A stretch of 64,000 nt of DNA from a phage. Below the pieces are notes generated by a model. The model saw only the letters and a program-made list of their open reading frames with translations, was not told where the DNA came from and made no database searches. Numbering within the stretch: the stretch's first letter is position 1; every line of letters starts with the position of its first letter. The position numbers and the translations under genes are program-made. Location of the stretch: NCBI GenBank assembly GCA_020241125.1, contig GCA_020241125.1_4708.1. One strand, given 5' to 3'. Of this stretch, positions 10,573 through 43,300 are shown in pieces.

Positions 10573-11406
10573 ACGTGTTCTCCTATCACGATGCGTATAC
10601 GACTGAAGACCGATGTCCATATGCGGTAACGTCAGCGTCTGCCAGATCTGTCGTGCGTAGCGATCGAGCGTATGATCGTCAGTAACACAATCGACGGGTT
10701 CGATGAGGTGGGTCGTATACTGGCTTTTCTCAGAGAAAGGTTCGATGTTAGCTGTATCGCCTAATCCGCTTTTCACGGTGAAGACAAGACGTGTGACGAT
10801 CATCGCCTTATGCTGCTGTTCATTATAACGAAGGCTGCGGTATACGGCATAGCTTCCTCCCTTTAAGCTTCGGGTATAACGAAGGTCGGAGGTCGTCTCG
10901 GAAATCTGATACAGCATCCAGTCCAACGTATCACGCCAGTACGCATCATCCACATCAGGAACTGTAATACCATACCGCGTAGGTAGCAGTTCTAAAAGCA
11001 ATTTATAAAGTCCGCGACGCAGACCATGCTCTTCTGTTTCCGATAAACCGTTTCCAACGTAACGTGAAATACGTGTACGTAAATACGTACGGATGAACAT
11101 ATTCGCCATCAGTGTTTTCACTCTGCTACTGGTATCCTCAAAGCGATCAACGCTGAAACTCGTTTCAATCAGCCGTCCATTAAAATACAATGCGGCAACA
11201 TACATCGCGTTATTGCTATCACGTTCAATGTTTAAACGACCGCAGATATTAGCCGCGTCGTTCATGGTAAATTCTAATTTATCGTGTTCGATACGATAGA
11301 TAATATCCTCTTGGGTTGCCAGGCTCGCAATGCGACGGTAGCCCGGAGAAGTACGTTTTACACTCATGATTGTCCTCGTTTTCAATTTTAAGATTGCATG
11401 CGGCAT
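10570..11406 (-). CDS. hypothetical protein
   Basis: 278 aa track ORF; TTTATGCCG element and hairpin upstream. Confidence 0.5.
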   Translation of the reverse strand: MPHAILKLKTRTIMSVKRTSPGYRRIASLATQEDIIYRIEHDKLEFTMNDAANICGRLNIERDSNNAMYVAALYFNGRLIETSFSVDRFEDTSSRVKTLMANMFIRTYLRTRISRYVGNGLSETEEHGLRRGLYKLLLELLPTRYGITVPDVDDAYWRDTLDWMLYQISETTSDLRYTRSLKGGSYAVYRSLRYNEQQHKAMIVTRLVFTVKSGLGDTANIEPFSEKSQYTTHLIEPVDCVTDDHTLDRYARQIWQTLTLPHMDIGLQSYTHRDRRTR

Positions 11407-11409
11407 AAA
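11395..11409 (-). promoter_or_regulatory. TATGCCG element downstream of hairpin
   Basis: Minus-strand TTTATGCCGCATG about 45 nt upstream of the 11406 ATG. Confidence 0.3.
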
Positions 11410-11434
11410 CCCTCCCCGCCTTATGCGGGGAGGG
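11410..11434 (-). terminator. stem-loop terminator
   Basis: Perfect 10 bp stem CCCTCCCCGC / GCGGGGAGGG with 5 nt loop; short U-run after it on the minus strand. Confidence 0.5.
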
Positions 11435-11449
11435 CAGCCATTAAATGGA

Positions 11450-12088
11450 TTAACCTAATTTACCACCGGCGATATTGGTGAAATCTTCGCCATCAGGAAC
11501 TTGCAGTAGGATACGTGCCATGTCCCAGTTGGTTAATGTAATTGCTTTATCATCGATACTCAGTTCTGGTAGGTCGAGTTCATGATCATCAAACTCGTAG
11601 GAAATACTCCACGTTTCATCTGTTTTAGGATCGGTTATCAACACACCGTCTGTTACACGCATGTAGTCCGGGTGCAGTTCATTACTGAACGTGCCGAACG
11701 GATCGGTGTAACATTCAGCATACCCCTCGATCTGCTGACGCTGTGCCTTCGTACGTAATTCAGGGCACGCCATGATCAGTTGTCGAGATATGCCGTTTGC
11801 AGCTCGGAAATCCTCCACGGTGTTACATGGCATAACCACATCGTCATGGAAGATGTTCTCCGATTGTCTCAGCAAAGTCTTACGGAGTTCAGCATAGTTT
11901 ATCTGATTGAATGCGTCGAACGTTGCTAACGATTCAGCGTAAAAATGCTTTACGTGTTCGCTTGCGCCGCCGAGGCTATTCATCAGCTTGTGGCCGTACT
12001 CCATAAAGCTTTTATCGAGACCGGAGGACATTTCTCCGAACCTCAGTGCACGATAACTGTCTCGTCCACCTGTAAATATTTGCGCCAT
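11450..12088 (-). CDS. hypothetical protein; possible RNA polymerase beta-prime region F / bridge-helix fragment
   Basis: 212 aa ORF with AGGAGGA 8 nt upstream, starting 15 nt after the exon 2 stop. N-terminus GGRDSYRALRFGEMSSGL loosely resembles beta-prime DSGARGS...AGMRGL; weak similarity only. Confidence 0.45.
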   Translation of the reverse strand: MAQIFTGGRDSYRALRFGEMSSGLDKSFMEYGHKLMNSLGGASEHVKHFYAESLATFDAFNQINYAELRKTLLRQSENIFHDDVVMPCNTVEDFRAANGISRQLIMACPELRTKAQRQQIEGYAECYTDPFGTFSNELHPDYMRVTDGVLITDPKTDETWSISYEFDDHELDLPELSIDDKAITLTNWDMARILLQVPDGEDFTNIAGGKLG

Positions 12089-12103
12089 TACAGGCGTCCT
12101 CCT

Positions 12104-12346
12104 TTAGCAATGGTTGTTAGTTGCTTCTATTTCGTCAAGATAAGGTTCTACGTCATCGCCCTCCACGAATTCGTTGAACCAACAGTCAATAGTGGAAATA
12201 ACCGGTGACTGGTGTTCACATTTCTTAGATACCTTAAAAGGTACGTTATTATCCATCATGCCGAGTTCGGGTCGAAAACGCCCGAAATGTTTCGCAGTCC
12301 AAATGTCTGGGACGATATGGTTGTTCATTGCGTCGCCGTCAAAGTC
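12104..12346 (-). CDS. non-virion-type RNA polymerase beta-prime-like subunit, exon 2
   Basis: Begins DFDGDAMNNH...MMDNN, matching the beta-prime NADFDGDQMAVH and LMMSTNN motifs; track ORF 12104-12349. Confidence 0.65.
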   Translation of the reverse strand, partial: DFDGDAMNNHIVPDIWTAKHFGRFRPELGMMDNNVPFKVSKKCEHQSPVISTIDCWFNEFVEGDDVEPYLDEIEATNNHC

Positions 12347-12696
12347 CACATATCTTCAGTATGAATCGCTACTTCATACCCGCAGCATTACCTGCAGCTC
12401 CTGGTGTTACCAGGACGGAGAGATCATCTCATCACCCACGAAGGGTGTTCCGCGCTACCCTCAGCGAATTCGAGGGACATGATCGTTGAACCTTCCACCG
12501 ATAATCGGTGGCTAGGCTGCTGATTAAACATTGTACGTTGGGGTGGCATCCTGGTTCAGGACTGTCGTTGAAGCCTCCCAACATCCACTCACTTATTTCC
12601 GCCTTATCGGCTCCCATAAGGGCAGAGTGGCTTTAGCCCGTCTCAGCAATTCACGGAATTCAAGCTCTTCCTTTCAGAAGGCAGGGCCTCATCTGA
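12347..12696 (-). other. putative group I self-splicing intron (no ORF) in beta-prime gene
   Basis: About 350 nt between GYNA (exon 1) and DFDGD (exon 2); read-through hits a stop. Exon 1 ends in U, insert ends in G. Contains GGUUCAACGAUCAUG with complementary AGAUGAUC downstream and several compact hairpins including a UUCG tetraloop. Confidence 0.55.
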
Positions 12697-13947
12697 AGCA
12701 TTGTATCCCTTAAGGATCATCACGCTTAACCCGATGGTATTATCCTGCGGATCGCGTTTAACCTTGGTGATTTCAAGACATTGGTTACTGCTTCGGTCAA
12801 GTGATGGGTTTCGAACAAAACCGCACACAATCCCATCGAACGGTGTATCAGCAATAAGCTCATCGTGCAGCTCACTCATCATCGGATGATAATTACGGAC
12901 ATGTTCCGCAACGAACGCACGTGCTGCTCTCGGTGAATAACCACGATGGAATAACTTGGATTGGATATGTTCTTTATTGGTTAAAGTAAATGGTGCGTAT
13001 GGGAAATGCAGATGATAATAACGATGGTTCGCTGTTATCGAACTGATTACAGTACGCGTGGTGAATGGATGTAATGTACCTAATATGTTTTTACGTGTGA
13101 TACCTTTCTTCTTACCGATGAACTCATCGAAAATCGCCGCATGGTATTGCAGTAGCTTCAATTGCACTTTCGCCATCCAGTTTTCTTTCTTTCTGGCGCT
13201 CAAAGGTGTTGTTGGGTGATAGATACTATTCAACGTACCGATAGCATCGATCGCACCTTCCATTTTGCTATCCGCATAACGACCGGTTGGCGTATTCTCG
13301 ATAACGAACATCATGGCCGCAGGAAAGCTGATATACTGACTGAAGAACTTATCACGATGGATACGGATGAATTCTCGTAGCGTATCAACTTTCTCCGTGT
13401 TCTTCGGTCCGCGTAACGTCGGTCCTTTATACAAGATCTCCATGATGCGATCGAAGTTCTGTATAAAACTATTTACACCGCGACGTATCCCGAATACATC
13501 GAATTGCTGCTCCAGATAGTTCTTGAGTTCGATGGGTCGTTTTACATTTGGACGGTAACTGGCATCAATGAGCCACGTCATCGTTTCAAAGCTTTTGATA
13601 TTCAACTCGCTTGCCAGCACGAGATGGACCAACGGGTTAATGAACGCATCAATTCCTTCAGGAACACGCGCCCAAACCGTCGAACGAATCTCTTGTTCTG
13701 CTGGATAGGTTACAACCGTTTTACAGTTCGGACACACCGTGCCGAGCAGCTCACCACGATTGTAGAAACCACAACCACATTGTGGCGTGATATCCAACGT
13801 ATCGCTGGAGTAAACACGGGTGATAAAACTGTTTAATTTCTTCTTCTCTTCGACGACTTTTGTATCGTAATCATTCAACAAAATCGGCGTGAAAGGAAGT
13901 TCTGCGAGCTGTCTATCGAAACTCACGATATCGAGCATGATGGCCAT
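12697..13947 (-). CDS. non-virion-type RNA polymerase beta-prime-like subunit, exon 1
   Basis: Zn-finger CGCGFYNRGELLGTVCPNC; RKNILG...TRTVISS (beta-prime RQNLLGKR..SGRSVI); GFVRNPSLDRSS (NRAPTLHR); ends GYNA. Track ORF 12643-13947 includes intron read-through. Confidence 0.65.
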
Positions 13948-13989
13948 GGGGTATCTCCTACAAATGAAAAAGAACGTTAGGACGTATAA

Positions 13990-14013
13990 GGGAGGGAGGT
14001 TGCCCTCCCTCCC
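13990..14013 (-). terminator. stem-loop, terminator or processing site
   Basis: 10 bp perfect stem GGGAGGGAGG / CCTCCCTCCC with 4 nt loop, between the 631 aa gene stop and the beta-prime gene RBS. Confidence 0.5.
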
Positions 14014-14039
14014 GTCAGATTACATCGAACGTTCTTCCA

Positions 14040-15935
14040 TTAGAACAGGTTGAATGCCCCACCCATGTTGTTAACGCCAACATTCGGACGATCGCTACGT
14101 GCGTAGATGTTACCGGAGATGTTACCCAGACCACGAGCACGTGCTGCCATGTTACCACGAACAGCGGTACCTGCCAGATGCTGGATGTTCTCAGGACGGA
14201 TGGTGAAGCCAGCATCAGCAGCGGCCTCGATCAGCGCCTGCAGTGCTAACGGATCGAAGTCGTAACGCATTGCCCAGCCGGTTTGTTCCCAGCTACCAGA
14301 CAGAACACGATCAATGATTTCGTGACGAGCGACAACACGCTGAGACATCGTCATATCGGTACGGTCGAAGCTGTCTTCCCAAGCTTCTACGGTATCCGGG
14401 TTAGTGATGTTCATCATGTACAGATCGTCCATATCACGAATATCGTGACGGTGACCATCCTGGTGGTTATAATGACCCAGCGGGATACGGTTACCGGTAG
14501 CGTAGACCAGTGGTGCGCCGTACTGATATTTCTTGCTGAAGCAACCCAGGGTAGTATCATCGAAGGCACGGAAGAGTGCTTTGTAACCTTCGGAGATTTC
14601 CCGGACTTCACCTTCAACTTTGCCCGTATAGATCTTCTCAGCCGCCGGGATCATACGCAGCAGCCAGCTGTATTCGCCTTCTTCCGGTACGTCGATAGAA
14701 ATCAGCAGAGACGGATACAGTACCTGTTGCAGGAACTTGTAAATCTGCTCGTTGGTTTGAGTAGACAGATCCAGCGGTGCGGTAACTTCCGGATCCAGTA
14801 CCATCGCCAGAGCACCCGGGTTATGCGGACCAATACCACGAGCAGCGTTGCTGATTAAAGACTGTGCCCACGCCATACCGCTGTTCAGCGTAGCGATGGT
14901 GCCAATCAGACCCAACACGAAAGTGTTCGGCGTGAACGCATCCAGCTCCAGCGGGTAAGCGCTGGTCATCACGTAACGCGGTTGGTATTGTACAGTCGGC
15001 GGTACCGGATAACCGTTAACCAGAACAGGGCCTTGGTTGAAGGTCGGGTTCTGCGGGCTGTAGGTCAGGTCAATGTAACCGGTGGTTGCGACCAGACGCT
15101 GCTGACTATCGTAATCGCTCATCGCTTGACGGATGCGGTTAGAGATAGTTACAGTGATGTCAGAACGCACAGGGTTACCAACAATATCGCTGTCCTGCAT
15201 ACCGCTGGTGTTGTACTGAACGCTGCTGATTGGCTGATCGCTTGCCATCATGCCCAGGTTGAACTGCGGCAGACCCAGTTTATCGCCGAGACGGATTTCG
15301 ATCGCGGTTTGGATTGCGTTATCTGCAGCAGACAGCAGGGTGGTTGCCAGATGCGCAGATTCAGCGGTGATTTCATTGGTCACCACAGCCAGACCAGCGA
15401 TACGAGCAGTACCATTAGACTTACCACCGATAGCTGCATACATTGCCGCCATGACTTCGTTGATGAACGTACCGTTCAGGTTATCAACCCAGGTACGCGG
15501 CACCAGAATGTTACCATGCGGGCCTTGTTCTTCACGACGCGGCAGCGGAGCCAAACCGGCAACCAGTGGAAGCACATAACCGAAGAAGTGGTTATGGTCA
15601 CCAACTTTTGCACCGCTCATAACAACCAGGGTCGGATACGGTACACTGTATTGGTTAGGATCGACGGTCACCATGATGAAGTCGTCTTTGAATCCTTTAT
15701 CTTCCAGTTCTTTTTCCATCAGACGACGGAGATTCAGTACCTGCTCGGAGCCAGTATTACGGCTAATACGACGGCTCAGTGTACGGTTGATCGTACGCAT
15801 CGTATGAGTTACTTTAGGCTGGCCAGCAAAATCTGCAGCGGTTTCCAGCGCCTCATCAGCACGTTGTGCGGTGCGGGTTTCAGCTGCACGAATTTCTACA
15901 TTATCGTTACCGTTATTACGTACGTCTAAGCCCAT
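14040..15935 (-). CDS. hypothetical protein; candidate phage-nucleus shell protein (chimallin-like)
   Basis: 631 aa; AGAGGA RBS; early-promoter-like motif C upstream; sits directly upstream of the beta-prime gene, the arrangement recalled for phiKZ gp54-gp55. No sequence motif verified. Confidence 0.4.
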   Translation of the reverse strand: MGLDVRNNGNDNVEIRAAETRTAQRADEALETAADFAGQPKVTHTMRTINRTLSRRISRNTGSEQVLNLRRLMEKELEDKGFKDDFIMVTVDPNQYSVPYPTLVVMSGAKVGDHNHFFGYVLPLVAGLAPLPRREEQGPHGNILVPRTWVDNLNGTFINEVMAAMYAAIGGKSNGTARIAGLAVVTNEITAESAHLATTLLSAADNAIQTAIEIRLGDKLGLPQFNLGMMASDQPISSVQYNTSGMQDSDIVGNPVRSDITVTISNRIRQAMSDYDSQQRLVATTGYIDLTYSPQNPTFNQGPVLVNGYPVPPTVQYQPRYVMTSAYPLELDAFTPNTFVLGLIGTIATLNSGMAWAQSLISNAARGIGPHNPGALAMVLDPEVTAPLDLSTQTNEQIYKFLQQVLYPSLLISIDVPEEGEYSWLLRMIPAAEKIYTGKVEGEVREISEGYKALFRAFDDTTLGCFSKKYQYGAPLVYATGNRIPLGHYNHQDGHRHDIRDMDDLYMMNITNPDTVEAWEDSFDRTDMTMSQRVVARHEIIDRVLSGSWEQTGWAMRYDFDPLALQALIEAAADAGFTIRPENIQHLAGTAVRGNMAARARGLGNISGNIYARSDRPNVGVNNMGGAFNLF

Positions 15936-17284: not shown

Positions 17285-17304
17285 TAACCTCCCTCCTCCC
17301 TTGC

Positions 17305-17350: not shown

Positions 17351-19504
17351 TTACTCTGCGGTTTCTTGCTTCGGTAAATAACTTGCTGCGATGTCTTGGG
17401 CTAACAATGTATTGTTTTTATTCGAGATGAAAATACCATAACTTTCCATTAACGCGTAATACGAACGCACGAGCGTAGAGATCAATCGACGAATATCCAT
17501 ACCTTGAATAAAGATATCAGGAAGCCCGGAGGCTTCGATCACCGGTAATGGTATCGTTAAGTTGCTTATCGTTTTCTTATCGTTACGTACAATCCAATCA
17601 CGGAAACGTTGTTGTAACCCTTTATCCTCCCAGGAATCAATCCAATCGTTAAGAAGCGTTTTGTTCTTCGTCGCCAACGGCACACGAACCCCAACATAGG
17701 GTGGTTCCTGGCAATGGCCGTACGATTGAGCAAACACCTCTTCCCACATATCGTAAGACTGTTTCGTTACTGCAACATGCGGTTTCACTTTAACACGTGT
17801 TAAGAAATCAGGATCACCACGTTTCATGGACTCAACGATTTCGTTTTCTAACGAGATAATATCGTCAAGAACCAATCGAATGCTGATCTTCTCGTTACGT
17901 AACAGCTTATCCATGATACCACACATCATGCGTTCAACACGTTTGACGATCATTTTTGGTGCTGACGCATCGCGCATAACCGGACCTTTCAATTCCAGCT
18001 TCGGTGGATTGATAGGAACCCCTTCACGCATGGTCATGTAACCGTAATAGTTTTTACCCATCGAGGTTAACGACAGAATCAAGAACATATATTCGTTCTT
18101 CATTTCCATCACGTACATATGCTCTTTCGCCACACCGATATTACCAGAACACATCGCCATCAGATGAACCGTAATCTGCGTAACCAGATAGATAAGCGTG
18201 TTTGCTAAGCGCGTCGAAACTGGATTGATCTCCATATTTCCAAATCGCCACTGAACCCACTCCTGGCAGGTAAACACCGTCGAGTCGGTATCAGACAACA
18301 CACCCACTTCACGGATTGCTGATGGGAAAGCATAAACACCAGCCGGTTGGTTCTCGGTACGCCAGAACGCCATAATCAAATCAGCATAGCTTTGAATACG
18401 CTGTAGCATTAATTTTGTCGTTGCTGCAGTAAGACGATAACCAAGCTCATTTCCTTTTTCTAGCGCTACGTAAATCGCTTCCCCATTCAAGAACTCCGTA
18501 CATTGTGCTGTAATCCAAGCGACCGTGTTGTTATCCATGGAAGCAATAATGGCTTTAGCCTCTTCCATCGTTTCAACAGGTTCGGATGCCAGCTCGCATA
18601 ACGAATCAAGAAAATCTCGAACAAATTCAGGATTAAGCTCACGTAACGAGTACAGGTTATTGCTATACATGTAGCAGGCGCGTTCCAGTGGGGTTAAACC
18701 GGTAATTAACTCCCGGATAGTCAGTTCTTTCTCTGGGTCGAAAGTATATCGATGCAAGCATTTCGATACGTTAGCCCAAACCTCTTCCGGCGTAGGGTAA
18801 TGTAGTTTGTATTTTACCATTACCTGTTCAATGGCTTTACGATCGCTGTTGCGGACAATACTCACGATGTTTTCAATTGCGATATCACAATCGTAATAAT
18901 GGAAATTGCCCGCAAGGAAGCGTTCGTTGTTCGCATTGGCTGAACCTGAAGCACAGCGACACGTTGTCGTTAAACTTGGATGCGCAATTGGATTATAAAA
19001 AGGGTTAAACTTGGACGCCTGGGTTCCTGACAAACTGTTGTTATCTAACTTGGTGTTGGTTTGTCGTTTATCGTGTAACTCAGCTTCATCTTTACGTCCG
19101 TGTGCTTGCGCTATCGACATTTGTTTCTTTTGTTTCTTACGCAACTTACCGTTTTCAACCGCAAAGTCGCTTAGCACACTGGAACGTGTTTCACGTGGAT
19201 AACAGTTAGCCCACACCGGCGTGATAATTAAATTATTTTCTTTAATATCATTGAAGTATTGGCTGAACTTGATGACTTCTTTTTCTCGATTTCCTTCGGT
19301 GCGCTGTGTTAATACAAGGCAGTCGGGATCAACCATCCCGTATTTTCCACCAGGACGAACCGTATCAAGGACAAACTGCAACGCTTCCTGCTGTGATATC
19401 CCACGCATGCGCATTAAGAACAGGGTATAATCCTGTACCGCTTCTTTGGTCATATCCAACGTACGGCCATATCCGTTTTCATCGTAAAAGAACGGATTTT
19501 CCAT
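17351..19504 (-). CDS. hypothetical protein; candidate divergent family-B DNA polymerase palm domain
   Basis: 717 aa; LSDTDSTVF (motif C-like YGDTDS), YSNNLYS about 120 aa upstream (motif B-like NSLYG), DNNSLSG further upstream (weak motif A-like); GGAGG RBS. Confidence 0.45.
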   Translation of the reverse strand: MENPFFYDENGYGRTLDMTKEAVQDYTLFLMRMRGISQQEALQFVLDTVRPGGKYGMVDPDCLVLTQRTEGNREKEVIKFSQYFNDIKENNLIITPVWANCYPRETRSSVLSDFAVENGKLRKKQKKQMSIAQAHGRKDEAELHDKRQTNTKLDNNSLSGTQASKFNPFYNPIAHPSLTTTCRCASGSANANNERFLAGNFHYYDCDIAIENIVSIVRNSDRKAIEQVMVKYKLHYPTPEEVWANVSKCLHRYTFDPEKELTIRELITGLTPLERACYMYSNNLYSLRELNPEFVRDFLDSLCELASEPVETMEEAKAIIASMDNNTVAWITAQCTEFLNGEAIYVALEKGNELGYRLTAATTKLMLQRIQSYADLIMAFWRTENQPAGVYAFPSAIREVGVLSDTDSTVFTCQEWVQWRFGNMEINPVSTRLANTLIYLVTQITVHLMAMCSGNIGVAKEHMYVMEMKNEYMFLILSLTSMGKNYYGYMTMREGVPINPPKLELKGPVMRDASAPKMIVKRVERMMCGIMDKLLRNEKISIRLVLDDIISLENEIVESMKRGDPDFLTRVKVKPHVAVTKQSYDMWEEVFAQSYGHCQEPPYVGVRVPLATKNKTLLNDWIDSWEDKGLQQRFRDWIVRNDKKTISNLTIPLPVIEASGLPDIFIQGMDIRRLISTLVRSYYALMESYGIFISNKNNTLLAQDIAASYLPKQETAE

Positions 19505-19562
19505 AAATCCTCCAAAAGTTATTTAGTCTGTCTACATCATCTCGTATATCTGTTAAAAAAGA

Positions 19563-19578
19563 AGGACGGCATAAAAAA
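19563..19578 (-). promoter_or_regulatory. TATGCCG element downstream of terminator
   Basis: Minus-strand CTTTTTTATGCCGTCC about 55 nt upstream of the 19504 ATG. Confidence 0.3.
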
Positions 19579-19607
19579 GAACCGATCCAGCCGAAGCCAG
19601 ATCGGTT
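19579..19607 (-). terminator. intrinsic terminator with UUCG tetraloop
   Basis: Minus-strand AACCGAUCUGGC-UUCG-GCUGGAUCGGUU (12 bp incl. 2 G-U pairs) then CUUUUUU. Confidence 0.6.
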
Positions 19608-19643
19608 AAAAAGGATAATAACTGACAGAAAGATATCGATGAT

Positions 19644-19745
19644 GTTCGTGAAACAAGATCTTCTCTCGTGTACAATGATGCTAGATCAGAGGGAGGTTGT
19701 AACACGAGAGGTGGTCCGCCAAAGAAGGAATAAAAAACACGAACC
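19644..19745 (-). ncRNA. structured intergenic RNA element of unknown function
   Basis: Nested inverted repeats: outer GTTCGTG / CACGAAC (19644-19650 with 19739-19745), inner CTCTCGTGT / ACACGAGAG (19664-19672 with 19703-19711) around a 30 nt loop whose minus-strand RNA contains CCUCCCUC. Confidence 0.3.
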
Positions 19746-19803
19746 TATCTTATTTCACTGATGGCACTAACCACTCAAAATATATAGTACCGTATGTAAA
19801 AGT

Positions 19804-20217
19804 TTACTGATTAATCAAGTCGTTAGCAACAATCTTGGTGTAACCCGCCTGATTAAGAATTTGATTAATTTTCGTCACGTCGGTCGCATCCTCAATAACG
19901 ATGCTGGGTTTATAGATCAGCGTCTTGGTAACGACGATTGTACTCTCCTTAATCCAAGGAATCCCTAGAATCACATACTCACCATCGGCTGTAATGACCT
20001 CGACGTAATTGTATTTCGTCGGATCGTTCGGTACACTAGACGGGAGCCGGGAATAAATCTGTTGGTGAATGGCGTCTACATCACGACCGTTACGTACAGC
20101 TGTGCGATAATTGTACACAGCGCTAATTTCTACTCCGTTGAAGTTAACCCCAAGTTCTGGGGCGTACACATCAAAACTCACAACAGAGCCAATCTTTTCT
20201 AAATCAGAAGCTGGCAT
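19804..20217 (-). CDS. hypothetical protein
   Basis: 137 aa track ORF. Confidence 0.5.
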   Translation of the reverse strand: MPASDLEKIGSVVSFDVYAPELGVNFNGVEISAVYNYRTAVRNGRDVDAIHQQIYSRLPSSVPNDPTKYNYVEVITADGEYVILGIPWIKESTIVVTKTLIYKPSIVIEDATDVTKINQILNQAGYTKIVANDLINQ

Positions 20218-23610: not shown

Positions 23611-23623
23611 TACACGGCATAAA
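23611..23623 (-). promoter_or_regulatory. TATGCCG element downstream of terminator
   Basis: Minus-strand TTTTATGCCGTG about 20 nt upstream of the 23601 ATG. Confidence 0.3.
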
Positions 23624-31987: not shown

Positions 31988-32139
31988 CAATGTAACGGTA
32001 AAACTTTACTGACGTTGGTTATTATTTGAAGCATAGGGCTTCACCCAGGAGTACCATCCCTTTAAGTCGTTTGTCCTCTCCTGGTTAACTGTCGTTCTCT
32101 CACAGTGCTCGACAGACCAAAAATGCTCAGGCCTCATAG

Positions 32140-32168
32140 CCTCCTCTGGGAATGGAACCCAGAGGAGG
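32140..32168. terminator. bidirectional stem-loop terminator between convergent genes
   Basis: Perfect 11 bp stem CCTCCTCTGGG / CCCAGAGGAGG with 7 nt loop. Confidence 0.55.
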
Positions 32169-32180
32169 ACTATGTTTGCC

Positions 32181-40125: not shown

Positions 40126-40142
40126 TTTATTACGGCATATAA
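40126..40142 (-). promoter_or_regulatory. TATGCCG element
   Basis: Minus-strand TTATATGCCGTAATAAAGG just upstream of the 40115 ATG. Confidence 0.3.
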
Positions 40143-43237: not shown

Positions 43238-43263
43238 CGTAAAAAAAAAAGCATATTAACCTC

Positions 43264-43300
43264 CCTTCCTTCCCCGGCCTTGACGGCTAGGGAAGGAAGG
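43264..43300. terminator. bidirectional intrinsic terminator
   Basis: 11 bp stem CCTTCCTTCCC / GGGAAGGAAGG with inner GCC/GGC; A10 run upstream and TTTATGGTTTATTT downstream. Confidence 0.7.

Follow-up and report, generated by a model that had tools for sequence, protein, structure and literature searches.

A candidate structured noncoding RNA upstream of a phage DNA polymerase gene

Short noncoding RNAs (ncRNAs) have been described in two phages of the Chimalliviridae. In phiKZ, ONT-cappable-seq revealed 17 candidates arising from promoter-proximal terminators, two of which were confirmed by Northern blot (Putzeys et al. 2024, PMC10914365), and in 201phi2-1 the same method revealed 11 candidates, one of them conserved in position across genera (2024; PMC11512511). 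Here, we analyse a group of hairpins in a stretch of 64,000 nucleotides (nt) of phage DNA (GenBank assembly GCA_020241125.1, contig GCA_020241125.1_4708.1; hereafter, the window). It shares 97.9% identity with Escherichia phage vB_EcoM_Goslar, an Escherichia coli jumbo phage and nucleus-forming chimallivirus to which its own phage is closely related. The hairpins lie in the 299-nt gap (19505-19803) between two minus-strand genes, those of the DNA polymerase-associated protein SH3DP and of a DNA polymerase. They are real and are part of a conserved, folded, noncoding minus-strand RNA of about 200 nt located upstream of the polymerase gene, which resembles small RNA candidates of related phages.

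The locus shares with the candidates of phiKZ and 201phi2-1 the phage family, the succession of a promoter (here a putative one) and a terminator within at most 250 nt upstream of a gene, and the conservation among close relatives. With its terminator in the intergenic region, the predicted unit (19776-19573, 204 nt) is, like theirs, shorter than 250 nt, and it contains no open reading frame (ORF) with a Shine-Dalgarno sequence. It differs from them in sequence and fold, which are unrelated, and in its start, which we deduce from a promoter-like box where theirs were mapped. It also precedes a terminator that ends the preceding operon, and a separate promoter-like motif for the gene follows. 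DapZ and MicL are enterobacterial small RNAs embedded in 3' untranslated regions (UTRs), with their own promoter and a terminator common with the mRNA. Our locus resembles them in having a promoter-like element where a coding region ends, a terminator common with the upstream mRNA, and conserved single-stranded, seed-like segments. It differs in being phage-encoded and probably the product of a phage RNA polymerase, with no evidence for Hfq or ProQ and a target search that gave no specific result. The put RNA of phage HK022 acts in cis in processive antitermination and consists of two adjacent stem-loops. Two adjacent stem-loops are also found here between a putative promoter and a terminator, upstream of essential genes, but there is no similarity in sequence or in Rfam, and the RNA polymerases of chimalliviruses are non-canonical. 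Finally, DNA polymerase autoregulation in T4 relies on the translational operator of gene 43, located at the ribosome-binding site of the polymerase mRNA and overlapping it. In both cases, an RNA hairpin precedes the DNA polymerase gene of a phage, but the hairpins described here are upstream of a terminator and of a putative polymerase promoter.

A three-way junction followed by an intrinsic terminator

The hairpins were originally predicted as a nested element at 19644-19745, with outer arms GTTCGTG (19644-19650) and CACGAAC (19738-19744) enclosing inner arms CTCTCGTGT (19663-19671) and ACACGAGAG (19702-19710). Both pairs of arms exist: the inner ones are complementary at nine of nine positions and lie 30 nt apart, and the outer ones are complementary at seven of seven. 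The architecture is another one. When the whole gap is folded, a helix of 12 base pairs (bp) surfaces (P1, 19758-19747 / 19659-19648), which closes a three-way junction and encloses two hairpins side by side (P2 and P3). This closing helix reaches past the predicted extent, and the whole unit is about 200 nt long. The minus-strand core (19648-19758) folds with -36.4 kcal/mol and z = -5.4; none of 200 shuffles folds as well, and the minimum-free-energy structure is the centroid structure. The plus-strand core has z = -2.6 and a diffuse ensemble. With the narrower boundaries of the original prediction, the fold is better on the plus strand (z = -3.95) than on the minus strand (z = -1.8).

To these folds, we added an alignment of 21 distinct versions of the gap, obtained from Goslar-like contigs of IMG/VR, metagenomes, and Logan/ENA/NCBI assemblies. 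Run on these variants without constraints, RNAalifold recovers P1, P2, P3, and the terminator, together with a small hairpin on the 5' side (P0). Its structure and the minimum-free-energy folds concur on a predicted ncRNA of about 200 nt (19573-19776, minus strand), which spans from the predicted start site to the U-run of the terminator.

Along this RNA, P0 comes first, with 5 bp (19774-19770 with 19765-19761) that are invariant and hence uninformative. The 5' arm of P1 (GUGAAAUAAGAU, 19747-19758) belongs to a 12-nt inverted repeat (I2) and is 99.5% paired in 18 distinct sequences; its 3' arm (AUCUUGUUUCAC, 19648-19659) overlaps the 3' arm CACGAAC (19650-19644) of the outer stem initially proposed. 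P2 (19713-19745) pairs GGUUCGU (19745-19739) with GCGGACC (19719-19713), which reads GCGRACC across relatives. The bases once assigned to the outer 5' arm thus pair locally, and they do so in 99% of cases. The 19-nt loop of P2 (UUUUUUAUUCCUUCUUUGG, 19738-19720) has a conserved UCCUU core. P3 (19663-19710, CUCUCGUGU(U)ACAA / UUGUACACGAGAG) is the inner stem of the original prediction. It pairs 19710-19702 and 19700-19697 with 19675-19672 and 19671-19663 in the RNAalifold structure, so that the perfect 9-bp repeat extends to 13-14 bp, and an A inserted in relatives pairs the bulged U. Its 21-nt loop (19696-19676) contains, as had been noticed, the pyrimidine-rich CCUCCCUC (19696-19689), invariant in the 21 variants, and also the invariant block CCUCCCUCUGAUCU.

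A single-stranded linker (19608-19647), whose 5' part GAACAUCAUCGAUAUCUUUC is invariant, leads to the terminator (19573-19607). The latter, found by a terminator scan, annotated in Goslar, and invariant in the 21 variants, has the marks of an intrinsic (Rho-independent) terminator, i.e., a G+C-rich hairpin, here a 12-bp stem with a UUCG loop, and then a U-run (CUUUUUU). In five variants (L098 and L106-L109), the 3' part of the linker, which is variable, has an insertion of about 19 nt (CACTTTTCATTTCCCTGTT) and the P2 loop is altered to UUACUCCUUUAG; the junction and the terminator are unaltered. The position first assigned to the element, between the stop codon of 19804-20217 and the UUCG-loop terminator (19607-19580 plus the U-run), is correct. 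Since it follows the SH3DP stop codon and precedes the terminator, it also belongs to the class proposed for it, a 3' UTR structure or a small RNA. It has no coding potential: no ORF is conserved, and the variants differ by insertions or deletions of 1, 2, and 19 nt, which break the two small ORFs overlapping it (19553-19705 on the minus strand and 19639-19761 on the plus strand).

The predicted RNA is conserved on the minus strand and under purifying selection

Across the variants, 97% of the pair cells are standard, and variable pairs mostly alternate between Watson-Crick and G-U. P2 is paired in 99.2% of cases although five of its seven pairs vary, all of them staying standard; one is G-C in 13 sequences, G-U in three, and A-U in two. 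One pair of P1 changes from U-G to U-A in five sequences, and three pairs of P3 show independent changes to G-U. In the divergent L098 group, P3 retains an 11-bp stem despite three insertions or deletions. The inner stem and its loop are kept in all 21 variants. The outer stem of the original prediction fares differently among 19 distinct relatives: one of its pairs is a C-A mismatch in 10 of them, another is broken in two, and the 3' arm never changes in compensation.

We then compared the two strands. The same pairs are standard in 97.1% of cases when read on the minus strand and in 88.1% on the plus strand, because nearly all one-sided changes yield G-U in the minus sense. This favours a minus-strand RNA over a DNA palindrome or a plus-strand RNA. 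Substitution rates relative to the window point to selection on the region. In the nearer variants, they amount to 3-4.5% in the RNA and 10-22% at third codon positions of the SH3DP and polymerase genes; in the L098 group, to 10-11% in the RNA and 26-37% at flanking third codon positions. The RNA region thus evolves three to four times more slowly than the synonymous sites of the flanking genes, and this noncoding stretch is hence under purifying selection. Its invariant parts are mostly unpaired: CCUCCCUCUGAUCU in the P3 loop, GAACAUCAUCGAUAUCUUUC in the linker, and the UCCUU core of the P2 loop.

Putative promoters on both sides of the terminator

Directly after the SH3DP stop codon lies a promoter-like box (19777-19803, minus strand), made of CTTTTACAT, a 5-nt spacer, and ACTATATATTTT, from which we predict a start at G19776. 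In the 21 variants, two invariant blocks (CTTTTACAT and ACTATATATTTTGAG) flank the variable spacer. A TTTAC + AT-rich + T(A/T)TG motif is at the same position in L008, L009, and L012, whose polymerases are 64%, 58%, and 34% identical to this one, and more distant relatives have TATG at the position of the box. Within the window, box-like motifs occur at 23257-23239 (minus strand), 32005-32029 (plus strand), and around 16128 (plus strand), and they are found upstream of gp237 and gp245 and after gp224. This makes four matches against 0.5 expected, with a pattern that was chosen after viewing the data. A candidate helix across the box (H1, GGUACUA / UAGUGCC) was discarded since G-to-A and U-to-C changes break it in several variants.

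On the other side, the motif TATGCCG (19567-19573, minus strand) overlaps the end of the U-run. The late promoters of phiKZ have the consensus T(-3)ATG(+1), all four bases of which are strictly needed by the non-virion RNA polymerase in vitro (PMC7598289). TATGCCG matches this consensus, and the polymerase mRNA would start at G19570. The motif also directly follows the terminator in most of a set of 45 distinct chimallivirus gaps between the SH3DP and polymerase genes, which we collected from IMG/VR. Two further copies in the window (at 23615-23621 and 40133-40139, both on the minus strand) precede other start codons by about 20 nt. Its occurrences after terminator hairpins or about 20 nt before start codons were also seen in loci L012-L093. 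The motif has the appearance of a promoter or start site common to the family and fused to the terminator. From the sequence, we predict two transcripts with putative promoters of their own: an RNA that extends from about G19776 to about 19573, and a polymerase mRNA that begins at G19570. As the polymerase gene appears to own the TATGCCG motif after the terminator, the element is probably outside the main 5' UTR of the polymerase.

A second copy of the box (AACTTTACTGACGTTGGTTATTATTTGAAGC) directly follows the stop codon of gp224 (window 32003-32180, plus strand). It precedes about 150 nt that are noncoding and structured (z = -3.15), contain several pyrimidine tracts of the CCUC type, and are followed by a bidirectional terminator. 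The region 32003-32180 has no Rfam match, and its layout suggests that it may be a second small RNA unit.

The same layout recurs across the Chimalliviridae

The 45 gaps fall into two groups. In short gaps (<170 nt, 15 cases), the terminator directly follows the stop codon; the gap of L013, for example, has the terminator and TATGCC alone. Long gaps (at least 170 nt, 30 cases) mostly start with an AT-rich box that has TATG, or a sequence close to it, at its end and is followed by 80-600 nt of noncoding sequence and then by the terminator. The box pattern matched 14 of the 30 long gaps, and by eye we counted about 24, a figure that is not the result of a tool. This succession of box, RNA, and terminator recurs in relatives with as little as 34-64% of polymerase identity, and the RNA sequences are unrelated. 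MAFFT could not align the gap with those of L008, L009, and 80 other chimallivirus loci. At this locus, a closing helix, internal hairpins, and a terminator are also seen in a second clade (L022, L025, L026, L034, and L063), with six compensated pairs.

In phiKZ, the gap between gp49, the SH3DP homologue, and gp50, the polymerase, contains a terminator, a TATG, about 60-80 nt, and a second terminator. The phiKZ gap (L094 1779-1979) and those of its relatives also have a TTTAC...TAATGTG box and a conserved GUGAAUGUAAGUUGAUGUG segment between the terminators. This arrangement would allow an RNA of some 60 nt between gp49 and gp50, ahead of the polymerase gene.

Searches for known families and for targets

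The original prediction had proposed an Rfam scan. The whole 64-kb window yields zero families of Rfam 15 at the gathering score, and the region 19450-19850, searched at E ≤ 10, gives sub-threshold hits only, the best of them with 11-19 bits against cut-offs of 47-86 and driven by the terminator. ARAGORN finds no tRNA or tmRNA gene.

The loop of the inner hairpin had also been likened to the 3' end of 16S rRNA. The likeness holds for the common hexamer ACCUCC, by comparison with the 3' end of the E. coli 16S rRNA, and for nothing beyond it. Complementarity to the ribosome-binding site of the polymerase (GGAGG, 19513-19509) is restricted to the generic 5 bp of CCUCC/GGAGG. The energy of the duplex expected from a sequestrator of the Shine-Dalgarno sequence does not exceed that of shuffles (z = -0.12), and both a terminator and a promoter-like motif lie between the two partners. 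An anti-Shine-Dalgarno action has no specific support in these comparisons.

Several repeats involving the loops came up in these searches. The 9-mer AACCTCCCT has four exact copies against about 0.5 expected, at 13993-14001 (minus strand), 17286-17294 (plus strand), 19690-19698 (minus strand), and 43258-43266 (plus strand); the three copies outside the element each fall in a terminator hairpin of the polypyrimidine/polypurine type. At 17295-17286, immediately after the stop codon of the polymerase gene, the minus-strand complement agrees with the P3 loop over 10 nt. Another part of this loop (19685-19678, minus strand) reads GAUCUAGC, most relatives having GAUCUGGC there, and copies the 5' arm of the terminator (GAUCUGGC, 19603-19596). 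The loop could therefore pair with the 3' arm of the terminator, and the A/G polymorphism keeps an A-U or a G-U pair. Two parts of the linker (19645-19638, ACAUCAUC; 19636-19631, AUAUCU) are complementary to the polymerase leader (19541-19534, GAUGAUGU; 19551-19546, AGAUAU), which gives 8 + 6 bp around a small internal loop. Both partners are invariant, and the global duplex test is non-significant. The repeat between P3 loop and terminator and the complementarity of linker and leader are within chance, and we treat them as leads only.

A probable small regulatory RNA and its alternatives

We think it probable, with moderate confidence, that this conserved, structured RNA, read from the minus strand over about 200 nt (19776 to about 19573), is a small regulatory RNA like the candidates of phiKZ and 201phi2-1. 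Its transcription would start from the box that follows the SH3DP gene, or it would be the 3' end that it shares with the transcript of the upstream operon, or both. The second route is suggested by the lack of a terminator between the SH3DP gene and the RNA, which may thus double as the 3' end of the operon transcript. The RNA would present P0, then P1 over P2 and P3 with their large pyrimidine-rich loops, then the linker and the terminator. Transcription would end at this terminator, and the polymerase gene would then be transcribed from its own TATGCCG directly downstream. Our best guess is that the invariant unpaired segments (CCUCCCUCUGAUCU in the P3 loop, the UCCUU core of the P2 loop, and the linker) are contact surfaces for an RNA or protein partner. 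The use of the promoters, the ends of the transcript, an action in trans, and the existence of a partner are all inferred.

Several observations weigh against this reading. Formal covariation is non-significant: in 83 of 500 column shuffles, the score is as high as the observed one, and changes on both sides occur in a single pair. The close kinship of the variants makes this test a weak one. A covariance model of the RNA of the Goslar clade (R1) finds no homologue outside this clade, among 85 other loci; with filters off, it aligns two hairpins and the linker in L009 with 5 bits, which is non-significant. R1 being silent beyond the Goslar clade, the RNA does not behave as a riboswitch-type aptamer conserved across distant hosts. 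The box pattern has no match in positions 1-100 kb of Goslar, so that the box is at best specific to one promoter class, and in the Goslar clade it reads TTTG or ATTG (TTTG in the window), where the non-virion RNA polymerase of phiKZ needs TATG in vitro; L009 and L008 also have ATTG or TTTG. Concerning function, the energies of the duplexes between the RNA and the leader are no better than those of shuffles in 10 of 11 phages. A target search across the window with the P3 loop, the P2 loop, and the linker retrieved only generic polypurine terminator arms, e.g., 17295-17286. Lastly, the start site, the 3' end, and the abundance of the RNA are predictions, and our search of the literature found no Goslar transcriptome.

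The RNA could instead be a cis-acting leader of the polymerase gene, in which the P1/P2/P3 junction decides on read-through of the terminator by binding a ligand or a protein, like a riboswitch, or by modifying the polymerase complex, like put of HK022, and TATGCCG adds another way of expression that escapes this regulation. Attenuators such as riboswitches and put classically consist of a junction with a terminator behind it, and the order of promoter-like box, structured RNA, terminator, and gene agrees with it. In phiKZ, promoter-proximal terminators are known to come with transcripts of two lengths, and for 201phi2-1 antitermination has been suspected. In addition, GAUCU(A/G)GC in the P3 loop is a copy of the terminator 5' arm GAUCUGGC that might pair with the 3' arm, and the invariant linker is complementary to the invariant polymerase leader. 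We nevertheless regard such a leader as unlikely. The terminator is strong and invariant, the conserved promoter-like motif of the polymerase gene lies after it, and relatives with short gaps, e.g., L013, manage with the terminator and TATGCC alone. No convincing antiterminator against the terminator 5' arm was seen by eye, in an inspection that was not a systematic search. The loop copy has the polarity of the 5' arm and would presumably lose kinetically to the adjacent UUCG hairpin, and by our estimate chance alone yields about 0.3 repeats of 8 nt in a stretch of 200 nt. The broader idea that the slot between the SH3DP and polymerase genes is used across the family by a fast-evolving structured RNA, which would act in cis on the terminator (riboswitch- or put-like) or on the polymerase leader and thereby set the timing or the amount of polymerase, strikes us as doubtful.

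The absence of a terminator from the SH3DP stop codon to the element, which forces operon transcripts to cross to the same terminator, is also what one would see if the element were merely the 3' UTR of the gp236-gp243 operon. There would then be no internal promoter, and the structure would stabilise or process the upstream mRNA or perhaps serve as a site for a phage RNA-binding protein. The box of the Goslar clade lacks the canonical TATG, and RNAs derived from 3' UTRs without a start site of their own are known in phage PAK_P3. This is rather improbable considering that the invariant two-block box with its variable spacer recurs at orthologous positions and upstream of other genes, and that helix H1, which spans the box, is broken in several variants. 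The terminator hairpin alone would be expected to protect the 3' end, and the extra 150 nt under selection would need another reason. An element acting at the level of DNA, i.e., protein-binding sites or a replication origin beside the polymerase gene, with an incidental RNA fold, would account for the near-perfect palindrome of 13-14 bp, the four GATC sites within 130 nt, and the vicinity of replication genes. It is made very improbable by the strand comparison, as the one-sided changes that are mostly G-U on the minus strand are A-C mismatches in DNA or on the plus strand (97.1% vs. 88.1%). Moreover, clusters of four GATC sites in 130 nt begin at about nine other positions of the window, the cumulative GC skew has no inflection near 19.6 kb, and there is a single copy of the element in the window and none in Goslar 1-100 kb. 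That the hairpins arose by chance in a neutral spacer is hardly credible. Inverted repeats of 7-9 nt are common in 300 nt and covariation is formally non-significant, but the fold has z = -5.4, the region evolves three to four times more slowly than synonymous sites, and the stems persist through insertions and deletions.

The phage and the flanking genes

The gene upstream of the RNA (19804-20217, minus strand) encodes SH3DP, an SH3-fold protein associated with phage DNA polymerases (Pfam PF20287, E = 1.3e-36; homologue of gp243 in the annotation of Goslar). The gene downstream (17351-19504, minus strand) encodes a divergent family B DNA polymerase (Pfam PF20286, E = 2.4e-204; Goslar gp244), which is 100% identical to the Goslar protein. 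Its predicted 66-nt leader (19505-19570, minus strand) has the Shine-Dalgarno sequence GGAGG at 19513-19509 and is largely invariant among the variants. Near the locus of the polymerase and SH3DP, Goslar also encodes chimallin, the protein of the nuclear shell, and the tubulin PhuZ.

Upstream, the gene order of the window is offset by about 1.4 kb relative to Goslar. Positions 168235-169645 of Goslar, with the HNH endonuclease gp186 and an annotated group I intron beside the gene of an RNA polymerase beta subunit, have no match in the window. The region compared with this segment is at about 11000-12700, homology restarting at 12698, and an Rfam search of 11000-14100 found no intron. The phage of the window seems to carry an intron-less allele near the RNA polymerase beta-subunit gene. 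An SH3DP protein of exactly this sequence is present on 497 contigs, many of them from assemblies of isolates named Salmonella enterica, E. coli, Shigella, or Enterobacter, in contigs of about 240 kb. Goslar-like phages would thus be frequent in isolate sequencing, by a carrier state or by contamination. A search of complete E. coli genomes and PLSDB plasmids found no copy.

Implications for the Chimalliviridae

Nothing known is overturned by these results. If expressed, the RNA would be the first defined ncRNA of Goslar found in the literature that we searched, with a structure that can be tested and invariant loops. The more useful observation may be that many Chimalliviridae have, between the SH3DP and polymerase genes, a promoter-like box, a structured noncoding stretch, a terminator, and a conserved TATGCCG. 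Should the slot act in cis, it would be a previously undescribed, family-wide RNA control point for replication. The locus is in any case a concrete and comparable site at which transcriptomes of jumbo phages can address whether promoter-proximal terminators give rise to regulatory RNAs or to the control of read-through.

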